In this document: piece after piece, positions 14,120 through 49,063 of the stretch
Position numbering within the stretch: position 1 is the stretch's first letter
Layout: every line of letters begins with the position of its first letter
Source of the DNA: an uncultured bacterium
GTDB taxonomy: Bacteria; Patescibacteriota; JABMPQ01; CAVVCK01
Direction: 5' to 3'
DNA length: 64,000 nucleotides
Assembly (NCBI GenBank): GCA_963746775.1
Contig: CAVVCK010000001.1
Location: 275,050-339,049 of the forward strand
Translations under genes and position numbers: made by a program
Notes under the pieces: generated by a model
The model's input: only the letters and a program-made list of their open reading frames with translations
The model's database searches: none
Told to the model about the DNA's origin: nothing

Positions 14120-14395
14120 TTACTCAACCACCCTAATTGCCTTCCCCTCTATTATTGCTTCAGACATTTTTCTATAAGCAGAAGATAGGATTCTCTGAAA
14201 AGTACTCTGAGAAGTCTTCATCGCTTTCGCACATTCAATTTGATCCAAATTTTCTATATTTTTTAATCTTAGTGCTTCTACTTCTTCTCTAGTTAATTCA
14301 ACTATTTCCAAATGCCTAACAGGTATTCCTTGCGGTTTAAAATATTTTACTTTTGGATTAAATCTAATCCTTCGACAAAGTTTTGGTCTTACCAT
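14120..14395 (-). CDS. DUF134/UPF0251-family predicted DNA-binding protein.
   Basis: MVRPKLCRRIRFNPKVKYFKPQGIP...LTREEVEALRLKNIENLDQIECAKAMKTSQSTFQRIL carries the characteristic N-terminal RPxxCRR..F.P...YFKP motif and a sigma-70 region-4-like HTH. Confidence 0.7.
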   Translation of the reverse strand: MVRPKLCRRIRFNPKVKYFKPQGIPVRHLEIVELTREEVEALRLKNIENLDQIECAKAMKTSQSTFQRILSSAYRKMSEAIIEGKAIRVVE

Positions 14396-14459
14396 AATAT
14401 TAATAGTTTATATAAATACTAACCCGTAGAGACAATATACAAATTGCCTCCACAAATCA

Positions 14460-14699
14460 TTATTTCTCAAGGCTCTTTTTCTCCTCTTCTATTGCTTTCA
14501 ATTCTTCTCTCAACATTTTTTCCTGGTTATTTAACATTTTCATTTTATCTTCCTTGGAATCAAACTGCAAACCCATTCTCATCCCACGATTATAACATCT
14601 TCCTCCAAATCCTTTTTTCATTCCTTGACCGCAATTACCCATTCCTCTACCTGTTCCAGATCCTGCGCCTTGAGGACCTGTTCCGTCAAATTCTGGCAT
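14460..14699 (-). CDS. DUF5320-like small protein. The likely true start is the internal ATG at 14699; the track ORF extends to 14777.
   Basis: MPEFDGTGPQGAGSGTGRGMGNCGQG... followed by a C-terminal coiled coil. A strong GGAGGTGG site lies 5 nt upstream of the 14699 ATG. Confidence 0.55.
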   Translation of the reverse strand: MPEFDGTGPQGAGSGTGRGMGNCGQGMKKGFGGRCYNRGMRMGLQFDSKEDKMKMLNNQEKMLREELKAIEEEKKSLEK

Positions 14700-14898
14700 A
14701 TTTACCACCTCCCTTCCTCGCCCGCCGAAGCCTAAGCGAAAACGGGTCATTGCTCGTCTACGCTTTGGTATAGGCAAACTATTATTTTTCTTAATTCTAT
14801 TTTAAATATATACCCATAACTAATTTATGTCAAATATTTTTTTTGCTTTTTTTAAAAAACTGTTATAATGTTATTTCAATAAAAAATAATTAAAAATC

Positions 14899-15606
14899 AT
14901 GCCTGAAAAAAAATCAAATAGTTTCCTTTTCGGCCTAACGACCGGAGTAGCTATTGTTGCTCTCCTTGGCTTCCTCGCTACTACCATTGCTTCTTCACTG
15001 AAAATTGGAAAAAGTCAAGCCCAACCAGCTCAAGTAGCAGATACAAATAATAACAATGATTCCGTTCCAACTAATCCTACCCCAACTGCTAAAATTGATT
15101 TTGAAATAAAAGATACTGATCATATCCGAGGTAACAAAAATGCGCCTATTACTATCTTAGAGTATTCAGATTTTCAATGTCCTTACTGCGCCAGATTTCA
15201 TGAAACACTAACTCAAGTTATGAAAAATTACGATGGCAAAGTTAAATGGGTTTTTAGACAATTTCCTCTATCTGAACTTCATCCCTTTGCCGAAACTGCT
15301 GCCGAGGCTTCAGAATGTGCTAACGACCAAAATAAATTCTGGGAATATACTGATGAATTATATGCCAATCAATCATCCTTTAGTGCGGACTATTTCAAAA
15401 AAGCAGCCAAGAATATTGGACTTAATACCAGTAAATTTAATACTTGCCTAGATTCCGGAAAATATAAAGATAAAGTGGCCGCTGATTATGCTGAAGGCGA
15501 TGGCTACGGAGTATCGGGTACACCAGGCAGTTTCTTAAATGGAGAGGAATTAGGTGGTGCTGTGCCTTATGAAAGTTTAAAGGCTAAAATTGATAAGTTA
15601 TTATAA
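14899..15606 (+). CDS. DsbA/BdbD-like thiol:disulfide oxidoreductase, membrane anchored.
   Basis: N-terminal TM helix, thioredoxin fold with a CPYC active site (YSDFQCPYCARFH), and a cis-Pro region. Confidence 0.8.
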   Translation: MPEKKSNSFLFGLTTGVAIVALLGFLATTIASSLKIGKSQAQPAQVADTNNNNDSVPTNPTPTAKIDFEIKDTDHIRGNKNAPITILEYSDFQCPYCARFHETLTQVMKNYDGKVKWVFRQFPLSELHPFAETAAEASECANDQNKFWEYTDELYANQSSFSADYFKKAAKNIGLNTSKFNTCLDSGKYKDKVAADYAEGDGYGVSGTPGSFLNGEELGGAVPYESLKAKIDKLL

Positions 15607-15620
15607 ATTTTCAATTTTAG

Positions 15621-15688
15621 AAAAATTATTTACCTGGCTTTAGCCAGCTCTTATAACTCAAAGACCTCCTAATTTAGGAGGTCTTTTT
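15621..15688 (+). terminator. 31-bp repeat unit (copy 1) followed by a rho-independent terminator.
   Basis: aaaaattatttacctggctttagccagctct (identical copy at 16471-16501), then agacctcctaatttaggaggtct + TTTTT. Confidence 0.6.
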
Positions 15689-15728
15689 GGTTAAATAAAA
15701 TATGCTAAAATAGAATCTAAATAATAAA

Positions 15729-16238
15729 ATGAGAAGAGTATTAATTATTGGCTGCTGCGGATCCGGTAAATCAACATTTGCCAAAAAACTAAATAAAATA
15801 CTAAAACTAGAATTAATACATCTAGATAAATTATATTGGAAACCAGGCTGGCAGAGATCATCACAAGTAGAATGGACAAAAATTGTCCAAGAAATTATAG
15901 AAAAAGATAGTTGGATTATGGATGGAAATTATGACAGCACTCTTGATATGAGAATAGTAAAAGCTGATACTGTCGTCTTTTTTAATTTTCCTAGAATTAC
16001 TTGTCTATATAATACTTTCAAAAGAGCCTTGAGAGGAAAATTATTTAAAGTTGTCAGAAGCGATATTAAAGAAGGCTGTGGAGAAAAGCTAGATTGGACT
16101 TTTCTAAAATGGATCTGGAAATTTAATAAAGAAGTTCGCCTTAATTATTTAGAAAAATTATATAAATTAAAGAAAGAAAAGGAAATTATAATTTTACATA
16201 ATTACAAAGAGTCTGATGATTTTTTAGAAAAAAAGTAG
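15729..16238 (+). CDS. Topology-modulation-protein-like P-loop NTPase (adenylate-kinase-like fold).
   Basis: MRRVLIIGCCGSGKSTFAKKL...HLDKLYWKPGWQ matches the FlaR/topology modulation protein family N-terminus. Confidence 0.65.
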   Translation: MRRVLIIGCCGSGKSTFAKKLNKILKLELIHLDKLYWKPGWQRSSQVEWTKIVQEIIEKDSWIMDGNYDSTLDMRIVKADTVVFFNFPRITCLYNTFKRALRGKLFKVVRSDIKEGCGEKLDWTFLKWIWKFNKEVRLNYLEKLYKLKKEKEIIILHNYKESDDFLEKK

Positions 16239-16383
16239 GTTGGGTTGAGTACTCGAAACCCAACGATTAATGTAATTTATAATCACTCTAGATATTCATC
16301 CATAATAATTAAGAATACATTTATCTCTTCTTGTTTATTTTATCTAAAGGCACTTTAATCCTTTTTTTTATATTAAATTCGAT

Positions 16384-16466
16384 CGTTCCAGATATTTATC
16401 TGGAACGTAATAATTCAAGGATATATATCCTTGAAAACATTCCGTTGCGGATATATATCCGCAACG
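16384..16466. repeat. Array of three perfect palindromes with a shared gatatatatc core and covarying flanks, spaced about 30 bp apart.
   Basis: cgttccagatatttatctggaacg (16384-16407), tcaaggatatatatccttga (16415-16434), cgttgcggatatatatccgcaacg (16443-16466). A degenerate fourth lies at about 16562-16584 (gctccagataagtatctgtaac). Confidence 0.6.
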
Positions 16467-16470
16467 ATCA

Positions 16471-16543
16471 AAAAATTATTTACCTGGCTTTAGCCAGCTC
16501 TGTGTAAACACAAAAGAACTTCTAAATCTAGAAGTTCTTTTTT
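16471..16543 (+). terminator. 31-bp repeat unit (copy 2) followed by a second terminator hairpin.
   Basis: aaaaattatttacctggctttagccagctct, then agaacttctaaatctagaagttct + TTTTTT. Confidence 0.55.
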
Positions 16544-16625
16544 ATATAAAAATTTCAATCGCTCCAGATAAGTATCTGTAACAATTAAAATCTATTAAAA
16601 CATCCTCATTTATCCCCACCCCCAT

Positions 16626-16659
16626 TTGACAGCTCTATTTTATACCTATACCATAGGTA
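16626..16659 (+). promoter_or_regulatory. Putative csoR promoter (TTGACA -35) with an overlapping inverted-repeat operator candidate.
   Basis: Perfect ttgaca at 16626-16631. tacctat-acc-ataggta (16643-16659) overlaps the predicted -10 region, 30 bp upstream of the csoR start. Confidence 0.4.
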
Positions 16660-16688
16660 CAGGTTATAACTAATTTAAATTTAAAATA

Positions 16689-16961
16689 ATGACAAAATCC
16701 AAAGAAAAAACTCTTATCAATTTCAAAAAGGCAAAAAGCTCATTAGCAAAAATTGAAACAATGGTCAAAGAAGACAAATACTGCATCGATATTATGCAAC
16801 AAAACCTAGCTGTCATCGGTCTATTAAAATCCGCTCATCAAATGTTGATGGAAGGACACTTAAATTCCTGCTTCAAAAATGCTATGGCCGCCAAAAATGA
16901 AAAAAGAAAACAAGAAATGATTGATGAAATTTTAAGACTATCCAAAATAGCAAATAAATAA
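16689..16961 (+). CDS. csoR: CsoR/RcnR-family metal-sensing transcriptional repressor (probably copper-sensing).
   Basis: 90 aa helical protein with the family signature ...YCIDIMQQ...H(Q)...LMEGHLNSC (the Cys-His-Cys metal ligand triad positions are conserved). It sits upstream of copA. Confidence 0.75.
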   Translation: MTKSKEKTLINFKKAKSSLAKIETMVKEDKYCIDIMQQNLAVIGLLKSAHQMLMEGHLNSCFKNAMAAKNEKRKQEMIDEILRLSKIANK

Positions 16962-28695: not shown

Positions 28696-29037
28696 TCAAA
28701 GTCTTATTTCTTCAAAACTAACTTTTTTGTTTTTAATTAATTTTCTTATCTTCTTCTGCTTAACAGACAACTGTGAATCTGCTGTTTTAAACTCTACTAA
28801 TACTATTTTTTCCTCATCAAACTGTACACCGTCAATAGGGCTGCCTAAAAATCTAAAATTTTGAGAATCATATGGGTATTCTTCCAAAAATGGTAAAAAT
28901 TGTTCAGTCATTTTACCATATTTAGAAGAAAGGCTCCTTTTTTGAAATTTTAAATCAGCTAATTTGCGGCGTGTACGAAAATACAACCAAGCAAACACCA
29001 GTACTAAAAATACTAAAATTAATATTATTTTCCACAT
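28696..29037 (-). CDS. Small membrane-anchored nuclease-like protein (Holliday-junction-resolvase-related endonuclease fold).
   Basis: N-terminal TM helix. FRFLGSPIDGVQFDEEKIVLVEFKTADSQL resembles the PD-(D/E)xK core (D...E.K) of archaeal Hjc-related bacterial proteins. Confidence 0.4.
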   Translation of the reverse strand: MWKIILILVFLVLVFAWLYFRTRRKLADLKFQKRSLSSKYGKMTEQFLPFLEEYPYDSQNFRFLGSPIDGVQFDEEKIVLVEFKTADSQLSVKQKKIRKLIKNKKVSFEEIRL

Positions 29038-29100: not shown

Positions 29101-29153
29101 ACATATATACGTACGTATATATGTGCGTATACTCTAACGTATATACGTTGATA
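29101..29153. promoter_or_regulatory. Cluster of perfect AT/CG palindromes in the promoter region of the 28696-29037 gene.
   Basis: acatatatacgtacgtatatatgt (24-bp perfect palindrome, 29101-29124) and aacgtatatacgtt (29140-29153). Confidence 0.45.
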
Positions 29154-29164
29154 TAATTTATGTT

Positions 29165-29596
29165 TTATTTTTTCAAAATTTCTAAAACATTTTTTAGAAT
29201 ATTATCCACATCAGCATAATACGATACTTCTATAGCTTGCTCTATATTTACCCATTGAACAGCCTGCACACCATCTTCTTGCTGCGGTACTATTTCAGCC
29301 TTCGGATTAATAAGCTTCATCAAATAAAAATGGACTATTTTATAAATCTCATTTCCTTCTTTATTTTTAAATTTATAATTAATATCTCCTAAATATTTTT
29401 TAATTCTCAGATCCTTAATTTTTAAACCAGTCTCTTCACTTACTTCCCTGGCAGCTGCTCCTATTTTAGTTTCTTTTTCGTCAATATGCCCTTTGGGAAA
29501 AGCCCACTGTCCATAAGAATCTTTAATAAACAAAATCATAATACCTTTATTAGTTTTTTTATAAACTATTCCTCCTGAACAATATTCTTCTTTCAT
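29165..29596 (-). CDS. NUDIX hydrolase.
   Basis: Nudix box GHIDEKETKIGAAAREVSEETGL. Confidence 0.85.
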   Translation of the reverse strand: MKEEYCSGGIVYKKTNKGIMILFIKDSYGQWAFPKGHIDEKETKIGAAAREVSEETGLKIKDLRIKKYLGDINYKFKNKEGNEIYKIVHFYLMKLINPKAEIVPQQEDGVQAVQWVNIEQAIEVSYYADVDNILKNVLEILKK

Positions 29597-46420: not shown

Positions 46421-48418
46421 GTGGATAAATTCAAATTACAAACAAATTTTAAATCAACCGGCGATCAACCTCAAGCTATTGAGGCTATTTGTAATAATTT
46501 AAAAAATAACGTTAAAAATCAAACATTGCTTGGAGTAACCGGCTCTGGCAAAACTTTTACAATGGCGGAAGTAATTGAGAAATATCAAAAACCAACTTTA
46601 GTTATTTCCCATAATAAAACTCTAGCTGCCCAACTAGCAAGCGAATTTCAATCTTTTTTCCCTAAAAATGCTGTCCATTATTTTGTCTCCTACTATGATT
46701 ATTATCAACCAGAAGCTTATATTTTAAAATCTGATACCTATATAGCCAAAGACGCCCAAGTAAATGAAGAGATAGATAGGCTTAGACACGCGGCCACTTC
46801 TTCGCTATTAATGAGATCAGATGTTATAGTTTGCGCTTCTGTTTCCTGTATCTATGGACTTGGCTCACCTTCCGATTATGAGAGTGTTAAAATATCACTA
46901 AAATTAGGTGAAGTAAGAATTATAGATTCAATTTTATCTCAATTGGCAGAAATAAATTATACTCGTAATAATATTGATTTGAGACGAGGCAATTTTAAAA
47001 TCAAGGGAGATATTTTAGAAATATTTCCTATTTATGAAAAAGAAAATGTTATTAGAATCGAGTTTTTTGGCAATGAAATAGAAAAAATAAAACAAGTGAA
47101 TTTCTTAACTGGGAAAGTAAATAAAGAATTAGAAAGAATAGATATTTATCCTGCTTCTCATTATGCTGTGCCTTTTGATAAGATGAAATTTGCTCTAAAT
47201 CAAATCAAAGAAGATTTAGGAATTAGACTTAGTGAATTAGAAAGAAAAAATAAATTAGTAGAAGCGCAGAGATTGGAACAAAGGACTAAATTTGATTTGG
47301 AAATGATTAAGGAAACTGGCTTTTGCAGCGGCATAGAAAATTATTCTCGATATTTTGACGGCCGGTCTCCCGGTGATGCACCTTATACCTTATTAGATTT
47401 TTTTCCAAAAGATTTTTTAATTATGATAGATGAATCGCATATGACTATCCCCCAAATTAATGGCATGTATTGGGGTGATCGTGCTCGCAAAGATTCTCTG
47501 GTTGAATATGGATTCAGATTGCCCTCCGCCTATGATAATAGACCACTTAAATTTAGTGAATTTGAAAAGAAAATAAATAAAGTCGTTTATGTTTCAGCTA
47601 CACCAAGTCCATATGAAAAAGAAAAATCCGGTAATAAAATAATTGAACAACTTGTCAGACCCACCGGCCTACTTGACCCAACTATAGAAATACAGCCAAC
47701 TAAAAACCAAATTGATAATTTATTGGAAGAAATTCAAATGCGAATTAAGAAGAAAGAAAGAATTCTAGTAACAACTTTAACTAAGAAACTAGCGGAAAAT
47801 TTATCAGAATATTTATCTGACATAGGCATTAAAGTACAATATTTGCATTCAGAAATAGATACCCTTGATCGTTTAGAAATAATTAAAAAATTAAGATCAG
47901 GCGTATTTGATGTTTTAGTAGGCATAAATCTACTACGCGAAGGATTAGATTTGCCTGAAGTATCTCTAATAGCTATTCTAGATGCTGATAAAGAAGGCTT
48001 CTTGCGATCTGAAACTGCCCTAGTTCAGACTATGGGACGAGCCGCCCGGCATATTAACGGCCACATTATCATGTACGCTGATAAGATAACTGGTTCTATG
48101 AGAAGGGCTATCAATGAAACTAAAAGAAGGAGAAAAATACAGGAAGAATATAATATAAAACATCATATTACCCCGCAGTCTATTAAGAAAAAAATAGATA
48201 ACTTTGATTTTATTGAAAAAAGATATAAAAAGCCTCAAAAAGAATCTATTTTACCTAAAAATATAAAAGATATAATTATGCGAGCCGATGAAAAAGGAAT
48301 TAAAAGATTAATTAGAGATTTAAATAATCAAATGGACTTGGCCGCTAAAAGCCTAGAATTTGAGAAAGCCGTAGTTTTAAGAGATGAAATTGAGAAAATA
48401 GAGAAAATTGTAAAATAA
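46421..48418 (+). CDS. uvrB: Excinuclease ABC subunit B.
   Basis: Helicase motifs (GVTGSGKTFT, DESH), beta-hairpin region, and C-terminal UVR domain (EFEKAVVLRDEIEKIE). Confidence 0.9.
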   Translation: MDKFKLQTNFKSTGDQPQAIEAICNNLKNNVKNQTLLGVTGSGKTFTMAEVIEKYQKPTLVISHNKTLAAQLASEFQSFFPKNAVHYFVSYYDYYQPEAYILKSDTYIAKDAQVNEEIDRLRHAATSSLLMRSDVIVCASVSCIYGLGSPSDYESVKISLKLGEVRIIDSILSQLAEINYTRNNIDLRRGNFKIKGDILEIFPIYEKENVIRIEFFGNEIEKIKQVNFLTGKVNKELERIDIYPASHYAVPFDKMKFALNQIKEDLGIRLSELERKNKLVEAQRLEQRTKFDLEMIKETGFCSGIENYSRYFDGRSPGDAPYTLLDFFPKDFLIMIDESHMTIPQINGMYWGDRARKDSLVEYGFRLPSAYDNRPLKFSEFEKKINKVVYVSATPSPYEKEKSGNKIIEQLVRPTGLLDPTIEIQPTKNQIDNLLEEIQMRIKKKERILVTTLTKKLAENLSEYLSDIGIKVQYLHSEIDTLDRLEIIKKLRSGVFDVLVGINLLREGLDLPEVSLIAILDADKEGFLRSETALVQTMGRAARHINGHIIMYADKITGSMRRAINETKRRRKIQEEYNIKHHITPQSIKKKIDNFDFIEKRYKKPQKESILPKNIKDIIMRADEKGIKRLIRDLNNQMDLAAKSLEFEKAVVLRDEIEKIEKIVK

Positions 48419-48448: not shown

Positions 48449-48487
48449 AGACATCCAATGTCTCTAAAGACATTGGATGTCTTTTTT
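48449..48487 (+). terminator. Rho-independent terminator.
   Basis: agacatccaatgtctctaaagacattggatgtct + TTTTTT. Confidence 0.6.
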
Positions 48488-48559: not shown

Positions 48560-49063
48560 ATGCTTTCTAGGCTGATCTTTTTGGTTGTTTCTTTCACTTT
48601 ACTAGCTGCTATTTGCCCCCAGCACCAGTATATTACATCGAACCACAACAACAATCCCAGCTCCAGCCGCTACCTCAAACGCAATCTCCTGTTTATCAGG
48701 AGAACTACCCAACGAGATACTATCAAACCTACCGACAACCATACACCTACCAACCAACATACTACCACAACTACAACAGACATTATTCAACACCACCTCA
48801 ACGCCACTACTATAGACCTGCACCTCGATACTACCACAGACCGACTACACCACCAGTTCAACACCACTATTCAAGTCCACCTCGTAGAAGTTACAGACCA
48901 CCACCCCAGCGCTATAGACCAACCCCAAGACCTCGATTTCGCCCTCCTCCTCAGTACCGCCGCCACCGAGGCCATCATGACCACGACAGAGGTGGTGGTG
49001 GACATCACCGCCGTCATTAGCTCCTTCCCCCAAAGACCCACCTCGCGGTCTTTTTTCATTTAA
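48560..49063 (+). CDS. Putative secreted low-complexity protein. The frame is uncertain because an overlapping P/Y/Q/R-rich frame at 48613-49020 is equally open.
   Basis: A strong SD (aggagaaaatcATG) and a signal-peptide-like N-terminus are followed by T/H/D-rich low complexity. The local DNA is C/A-rich, about 50% GC, unlike the rest of the window. Confidence 0.3.
   Translation: MLSRLIFLVVSFTLLAAICPQHQYITSNHNNNPSSSRYLKRNLLFIRRTTQRDTIKPTDNHTPTNQHTTTTTTDIIQHHLNATTIDLHLDTTTDRLHHQFNTTIQVHLVEVTDHHPSAIDQPQDLDFALLLSTAATEAIMTTTEVVVDITAVISSFPQRPTSRSFFI

Follow-up and report, generated by a model that had tools for sequence, protein, structure and literature searches.

The three consecutive palindromes located upstream of a copper cluster in the 64-kb stretch of DNA analysed here (the window, with coordinates given on its + strand) are, with a probability that we place at about 0.8, a transposase-less cluster of REP-type hairpins. 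They belong to a family cognate to a single clade of REP-associated tyrosine transposases (RAYTs) and would represent either a RAYT-less remnant of a REPtron or a REPIN/BIME-like form. They are assigned to the REP type because homologous palindromes flank a RAYT gene in related bacteria. Indeed, at four independent loci (L185, L117, L186 and L189), palindromes homologous to those of the window and sharing the core ACGGATnnnTATCCGT directly flank a gene coding for a Y1/HUH transposase.

The proteins encoded at L185, L117 and L186 score 103-112 bits with the NCBIfam model NF047646, 'REP-associated tyrosine transposase' (cut-off 80), as against 22-27 bits with the IS200 model NF033573 (cut-off 55), and an IS200/IS605 element was rejected on these scores; the L189 protein gives a weak match to Pfam Y1_Tnp. 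Further, alignment of the L185 protein with E. coli TnpA_REP (PDB 4ER8) brings the HUH motifs and the catalytic tyrosines of the two into register, and members of the cluster bear the JGI name 'REP element-mobilizing transposase RayT'. In L117, the stop codon of a gene for a Y1_Tnp protein of 177 aa is directly followed by the units U2b and U3. The closest homologue of this protein (82% identity) is that of L185, whose gene shares a chromosomal contig with DUF3160 and MurB genes. The L185 element reads GATCG-U1-AAATAAT-U2, 19 nt, the RAYT gene, and then U2b-TAATATTT-U3-CAATCG. The left unit of the window, U1, is homologous to the U1 upstream of the RAYT gene in L185, as well as to the U1 of L136, L020 and L017, while its right unit, U3, has as its homologue the CGTTACGGATnnATATCCGTAAC unit that directly follows the RAYT genes in L117, L185 and L186. 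The homologues at L186 and L189 are more distant (62-65% identity, host G+C 41-52%), and their genes too are flanked by palindromes with the same core; L186 additionally contains dispersed units near the RAYT gene, with at least six units within 1.6 kb. In L117, an IS630-family (DDE_3) transposase gene (510-1590) has been inserted into the U2 of the REPtron left end; what is left of this end is the right half of U2 plus the leader of the RAYT gene. In Pseudomonas, REP units are known as IS targets. In the 64-kb window itself, a tblastn search with RAYT recovered no homologue, a result that counts against the REP reading.

The host of the window is a member of the Patescibacteria (CPR) with a tiny genome and a G+C content of about 32-33%, which would be an unusual setting for selfish DNA of the REP type, and homologues of its DsbA carry Parcubacteria or Patescibacteria labels. 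The locus comprises, all on the + strand, a gene for this DsbA-like thioredoxin (14899-15606), a gene for a small AAA_18/AAA_33-like P-loop NTPase of 169 aa (15729-16238) with a hairpin directly 3' of it (16239-16264), and the gene for a CsoR-family repressor (16689-16961), which is the first of the copper cluster and is followed by genes for DsbD/HMA/cupredoxin, cupredoxin and CopA. The first-pass annotation had placed the array upstream of the copper cluster in a gene-free gap of 450 bp, and both statements hold: the array lies 5' of the CsoR-led operon, and between the P-loop stop (16238) and the CsoR start (16689) there are 450 bp in which the sole ORF is a mechanical one of 58 aa with a TTG start. 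A search of genome contigs with the P-loop protein found no syntenic locus and only distant homologues from unrelated phyla, the best matches (31-48% identical) coming from Halanaerobiales, Acidobacteriota, Chloroflexota, Bacillota and archaea. Since the homologues are this distant (at most 48%) and scattered over phyla, and no locus is syntenic, the evidence suggests that the gene is horizontally acquired cargo. On the other side of dsbA, and divergent from it, is a minus-strand DUF5320 + DUF134 gene pair (14120-14777), which adjoins DsbA in L016 and L018 too; DUF134, being a predicted DNA-binding protein, could be a local regulator of dsbA.

The outer left unit, U1 (16384-16407, + strand), has the sequence CGTTCCAGATA-TT-TATCTGGAACG and is preceded by the 5' foot tag CGAT (16380-16383, + strand, within CGATCG), with the same foot being seen in relatives. 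The linker TAATAA(T) (16408-16413, + strand), likewise conserved in relatives, connects it to the inner unit U2 (16414-16435, no strand assigned), a perfect palindrome of 22 nt, TTCAAGGATATATATCCTTGAA. The outer right unit, U3 (16443-16466, - strand), is a perfect 24-nt palindrome, CGTTGCGGATATATATCCGCAACG, and adjoins the foot tag GAT (16467-16469, - strand; ATC on the + strand), the mirror of the U1 tag. With a covariance model of the unit, the three score 31.7, 30.8 and 35.5 bits, respectively. The earlier description of three perfect palindromes was thus right as to their existence and positions, including the perfect 24-mer at U3, but the 11-bp arms of U1 surround a non-complementary TT, so that its centre is not strictly perfect, and U2, although perfect, is slightly longer than had been claimed. 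The spacing of about 30 bp was accurately described, with centres 29 and 30 bp apart and gaps of 6-8 nt between the units, as was the common core within differing arms, all three units sharing GATATWTATC. Additional exact copies of this core were sought throughout the 64 kb, and apart from the three units there is a lone match at 47141. U3 is an inverted copy of U1, with 79% complementarity across 34 nt; the tags of the two point outward, and the outer feet of the array read CGATCG and CGATC.

A degenerate fourth unit had also been proposed and is indeed found as the solo unit U4 (16560-16583, + strand), in which 8 of 11 pairs form and which scores 24.3 bits. Its left arm is U1-like and its right arm resembles that of the U3 of L017; its left flank is 80% identical to the left flank of U1, and both U1 and U4 are preceded by a T-run and ATATAAAAATTTC(A/G)ATCG. 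Upstream of the array, local alignment points to a probable decayed copy of U1-linker-U2 at about 16281-16330 (+ strand), where 2 of 500 shuffles attained the alignment score against the intact array and 5 of 500 attained that against the L017 array. Taken together, the region looks like a small BIME-like tandem cluster of one decayed, one intact and one collapsed copy (U4). The unit covariance model matches in the window only the four units (16384-16583), plus a weak hit of 10.8 bits at the decayed copy, and in 578 kb of other loci only family loci, together with a single locus picked for its core pattern. For palindromes whose arms span at least 11 and whose loop is at most 2, the count in the window is six, as compared with a mean of 0.17 and a maximum of 2 in 60 dinucleotide-preserving shuffles of it; three of the six fall within 83 bp, and at least two of the other three are terminator-like.

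Other symmetric sequences occur elsewhere in the window. A perfect 24-nt palindrome, ACATATATACGTACGTATATATGT (29101-29124), lies between the minus-strand genes at 28696-29037 and 29165-29596 and has no sequence relationship with the REP family, the unit model giving it 11 bits. Between genes ending at 48418 and starting at 48560 sits a hairpin of 34 nt whose arms measure 15 bp, AGACATCCAATGTCT-CTAA-AGACATTGGATGTCT (48449-48482); it is devoid of the T-run that the other terminators typically have. The cumulative GC skew is free of any inflection, and a replication origin was set aside on this ground.

The proposal that each unit keeps its own pairing is borne out by compensatory changes both between units and between species. 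In an ungapped alignment of 20 units from seven loci with an 11-pair stem, 87.7% of the cells are paired, a figure inflated by the choice of some units for being palindromic, with degenerate units at homologous positions included. Changes on both sides are seen in 8 of the 11 stem pairs, and the doubly changed cells number 31, as compared with 8.9 +/- 2.3 in column shuffles, none of 500 of which reaches the observed count; sliding the partner by 1-3 columns abolishes the signal. For example, the U2 arms are CAAGG/CCTTG in the window and CAGGG/CCCTG in L017 and L185. The innermost stem positions (G8 A9 T10 / A15 T16 C17) are invariant or nearly so across the 20 units, and this invariant GAT/ATC core points to sequence-specific recognition on top of pairing. 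Mismatched cells comprise 7 G-T and 12 A-C with no strand bias, and since G-T is not in excess over A-C, they give no pointer to an RNA on one strand. As single-stranded DNA, the array folds into three hairpins (-29.4 kcal/mol, z = -9.3). Folding of the transcripts of both strands, recommended in the first-pass annotation, likewise gives structures far more stable than those of shuffled sequences (z = -11.1 and -8.5).

Comparison of the DsbA-CsoR spacer across relatives, several of which have the two genes linked with variable intervening DNA, provides gene-less counterparts. The same array, CGATCG-U1-TAATAAT-U2-U3-CGATCG, with the same polarity and linkers and again RAYT-less, is present in the spacer of two other Patescibacteria contigs, L020 and L017 (the latter identical to L156 and L177). 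In L020 (JGI), DsbA is followed by a terminator, the array and the CsoR promoter, with no gene in the spacer, whereas in L017 the array comes right after the DsbA stop and is succeeded by a methyltransferase island and then by CsoR. Where present, the array is about 70% conserved, the DsbA proteins being only 71-73% identical; the linker is TAATAAT in the window, L017 and L020, and AAATAAT in L185. The U1 of L020 (1746-1789) keeps its basal stem and carries in its core a G+C-rich insertion of 29 nt, ACCCTATGGGCGACCACCCGTTAGGGTGG, which itself folds as a hairpin and extends the U1 stem. Among the DsbA or DsbA-CsoR loci of relatives inspected, the array is absent from L016, L021 and L022-L025.

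The spacer as such (window 15607-16688, L017 959-5749, L020 1653-1976, L021 3023-5621, L022 6706-7264) is a variable hot spot. Its cargo is the P-loop NTPase in the window, a methyltransferase or restriction-modification-like island in L017, a short-chain dehydrogenase with three small genes in L021 and an 81-aa gene in L022; there is none in L020.

Outside the window, at least three distinct gene neighbourhoods harbour the family. A loose pattern, GGATAWWTATCC-N(8-20)-CGTTNCNGAT, matched at least 120 metagenomic loci, nearly all of them by chance inside genes; the only true arrays among the matches listed were L117, L136, L156 and L177, with L020 not being recovered. Of these, L136 lies in an unrelated context, flanked by PsbP-like and translin-family genes and with copper genes absent from its vicinity, and has four hairpins (U1, U2a, U2b and U3) with CGATCG feet. 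Judged from sequence, L136 is the L185 element minus its gene with both inner hairpins retained, and U1-U2-U3 of the window is the gene-less form of an L185-type REPtron. Across the window, L017, L020, L136, L117 and L185, GAT is found in 11 of 12 outer feet and CGAT in 8 of 12; the distant relatives L186 and L189 have other feet. A viral scan yielded no match to the U2-U3 pattern, 39 chance matches to the linker-plus-core pattern, none with the array architecture, and a single match to the exact U3-type pattern, which lies in apparent coding sequence of a 4-kb contig and is taken for chance.

When set beside the known REP, BIME and REPIN sequences and their RAYTs ('REPtrons') of E. coli, Pseudomonas and Stenotrophomonas (PMC3333891, PMC3479197, PMC3116915, PMC3733652), the family shares with them short extragenic hairpin palindromes, here units of 22-24 nt with arms of 11-12 bp. 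It likewise shares their clustering in inverted orientation (seen as the U1/U3 doublet in the window, in L136 and around the RAYT gene in L185), the flanking by homologous units of a single RAYT gene, the product of which scores above the RAYT cut-off and can be aligned with TnpA_REP, and the persistence of RAYT-less clusters at fixed loci. REPs have been reported downstream of ORFs and between co-directional genes (PMC3733652), and the location of the window array fits this behaviour. There are also differences, several of which count against a REP identity. Classical REPs bear a GTAG tag at the hairpin foot, where the window has CGAT (PMC3479197); neither GTAG nor CGTC is present at the feet here, the outer units instead carrying 5'-(C)GAT (CGATCG). 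The units are unusually perfect or nearly so around an A+T core (GGATATATATCC), whereas classical REP stems are imperfect and G+C-rich. In addition, the arrays of the family consist of three or four hairpins with untagged inner palindromes, in a Patescibacteria (CPR) host of about 32% G+C. As to the high copy number and genome-wide dispersal that mark REPs, the 64 kb covered contain one cluster (the four units and the decayed copy).

Lack of a GTAG or CGTC tag and the occurrence of one cluster in the 64 kb covered are features in which the window family resembles the low-abundance 'TIRtron' variants (TIRYT; Di Nocera et al. 2013, PMC3733652). These too consist of a RAYT-like gene flanked by inverted, partly self-complementary repeats without GTAG, and form repeat families of moderate or low abundance occurring as dimers or clusters (PMC3733652). 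However, as far as the repeats compared are concerned, published TIRs share GGGGWSAS or are mutually unrelated, and none has been reported with the present core. With IS200/IS605 elements and their miniature derivatives (PATEs), the family has in common a Y1/HUH transposase, subterminal hairpins, single-stranded DNA recognition and gene-less forms that keep both ends. It differs from them in that its proteins fall below the IS200 cut-off and above the RAYT cut-off, in having two hairpins at each element end, and in that the outer hairpin on its left is an inverted copy of that on its right, where IS608 has distinct LE and RE.

These features can be combined into a tentative mechanism. The complete element in relatives is a REPtron of the form CGATCG-U1-linker-U2-(RAYT gene)-U2b-linker-U3-CGATCG, and each of its units would fold into a hairpin when the DNA becomes single-stranded. 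E. coli TnpA_REP and the IS200/IS605 transposases bind the foot of a single-stranded DNA hairpin together with a 5' tetranucleotide, cleave and rejoin (PMC3479197, PMC3333891); by analogy with TnpA_REP, the RAYT of the present family may bind the hairpin foot and the adjacent 5' tag, which would be (C)GAT in place of GTAG, and may cleave and rejoin the strand such that units spread or are rearranged. The flanks would covary because the units must fold as hairpins, and selection for the fold, or hairpin-templated repair, could keep the pairing perfect while the arms differ; the core would remain constant because it is needed for recognition. As there is no RAYT gene in the window, its cluster is presumably either inert or dependent on a RAYT that is encoded at another site of the genome and acts in trans.

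The main rival readings treat the palindromes as sites or transcripts of the host. The first-pass annotation had offered repeated sites for a dimeric regulator, which can be framed as double-stranded DNA operators at which a transcription factor reads the GATATATATC core, binding cooperatively at sites some 30 bp (roughly three helical turns) apart and controlling DsbA and/or the copper cluster. The near-invariance of the inner core positions in the 20 units, the regular 29-30 bp spacing and the retention of the array between DsbA and CsoR in three genomes that have diverged would all fit such operators. Nevertheless, a dimeric regulator of the copper cluster is unlikely, and to operators in general we accord very little probability: the same palindromes flank RAYT genes at four unrelated loci and also sit between unrelated genes, as in L136, where copper genes are lacking. 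In the window, a terminator (terminator 2, see below) separates the array from the cop promoter. The relatives with the same DsbA-CsoR order that lack the array retain a different conserved site, the palindrome TACCTATACCATAGGTA. In the window, this site (16643-16659) overlaps the -10 of a TTGACA-17-TACCAT promoter and is likely the CsoR operator. It is conserved in L017, L020, L021 and L022, as is the C-rich box TTATCCCCACCCC just upstream of the -35 (region 16607-16659), and the three-palindrome array was rejected as the CsoR operator, being absent from L021 and L022 although TACCTATACCATAGGTA is present there. Further, the U1 core of L020 is interrupted by a 29-nt hairpin with the basal stem kept, and compensatory changes in the outer arms would not be expected if half-sites were recognized independently. 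Among look-alikes, NrdR boxes, parS and dif/Xer sites were set aside; none of them is known to have a consensus or a gene neighbourhood matching those seen here.

The alternative suggestion of RNA hairpins would make the array a non-coding RNA with a defined structure, or part of a 3' UTR, selected as RNA; its three hairpins would form a cloverleaf closed by GAUCG/CGAUC and act as an mRNA stabiliser, RNase target or sRNA. We regard this as very improbable, notwithstanding the very stable fold on both strands, the covariation of the stem pairs, the location of the array downstream of an ORF and upstream of a terminator in the window and L017, and the published view that many REPs undergo transcription and function at the level of RNA (PMC3733652). 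A dedicated RNA function is not supported by the Rfam searches: Rfam 15 at gathering thresholds finds only three tRNAs in the window, and a permissive scan of 15550-16720 gave only sub-threshold chance matches. The perfect two-fold symmetry, combined with the absence of G-U enrichment among mismatches, provides no strand signal. The position of the array relative to terminators is not conserved (after one in L020, before one in the window), no promoter in front of it on either strand is consistent between the window, L017 and L020, and the physical association with RAYT accounts for the family without any RNA function. On the REP reading, the array, if transcribed, would yield three stable RNA hairpins in a 3' UTR with a possible side effect such as protection of the mRNA 3' end, and this would be a by-product rather than the reason why the array exists. 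A reading of the units as core sites of a tyrosine, Xer-like or integron-like site-specific recombinase at a cargo-capturing hot spot is extremely improbable. The geometry of 9-bp arms around a 6-bp TATATA overlap would suit it, as would the hybrid look of U4, whose left arm is that of U1 and whose right arm is of the U3 type, and the differing cargo of the spacer in relatives. However, no integrase or Xer gene is found beside any array, the gene consistently attached being a Y1/HUH transposase, an enzyme acting on single-stranded hairpins. Moreover, the cargo is upstream of the array in the window and downstream of it in L017, and varies in array-less relatives too. Finally, a CRISPR array, for which a check had been advised, is excluded: the three or four units differ in their arms and the 'spacers' are of 6-8 nt.

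The array was further said to lie between two repeat-plus-terminator modules, and these are present as described. An exact 31-bp repeat, AAAAATTATTTACCTGGCTTTAGCCAGCTCT, which holds a small CTGGC/GCCAG hairpin, occurs on the + strand after the DsbA stop (15621-15651) and directly after U3 (16471-16501), each copy being followed by a terminator hairpin: terminator 1 (15660-15690, + strand), conserved also in L018, and terminator 2 (16512-16546, + strand), which has an A-run and a T-run on either side and is possibly bidirectional. The terminator stems have diverged (76% identity) yet still pair. In L016 (6776-6799), 22 of 24 nt of the repeat recur after DsbA and before a terminator, and because they are kept while DsbA is only 71% identical, the repeat is under constraint and separate from the palindrome family; a 3'-UTR-derived sRNA and a protein site are both candidate identities for it. 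The viral scan gave no match to it. Logan contigs (k=31) end exactly at both copies, and short-read assemblies break at this locus because of the REP-type repeats and the neighbouring exact 31-bp repeat.

A conserved cis-element of the host would likewise be expected at one and the same spacer in diverged genomes, as the array is in three. Because the array is kept in the DsbA-CsoR spacer of at least three genomes with DsbA proteins about 71-73% identical, it is conceivable, although we consider it unlikely, that the RAYT-less array has been co-opted by the host, either as an insulator or 3'-end protector between dsbA and cop or as a recombination-prone platform for gene capture. Ultra-small genomes are expected to purge selfish repeats, and such co-option, if true, would make this a domesticated REP cluster in an ultra-small genome.

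Under the preferred reading as a REP-type cluster, it would be wrong to annotate the palindromes as a copper-responsive operator, an sRNA or a CRISPR-like array. To our knowledge, REP/RAYT systems have been characterised almost entirely in Proteobacteria, and their origin, mobility and persistence are still debated; no report of such systems in Patescibacteria or CPR was found in the searchable literature. A REPtron family in Patescibacteria would hence extend the host range of REP/RAYT. The family would be set apart by its (C)GAT foot tag, its perfect A+T-cored hairpins and the retention of RAYT-less arrays at one locus across species, and its units would offer simple substrates for testing how RAYTs choose their hairpins.
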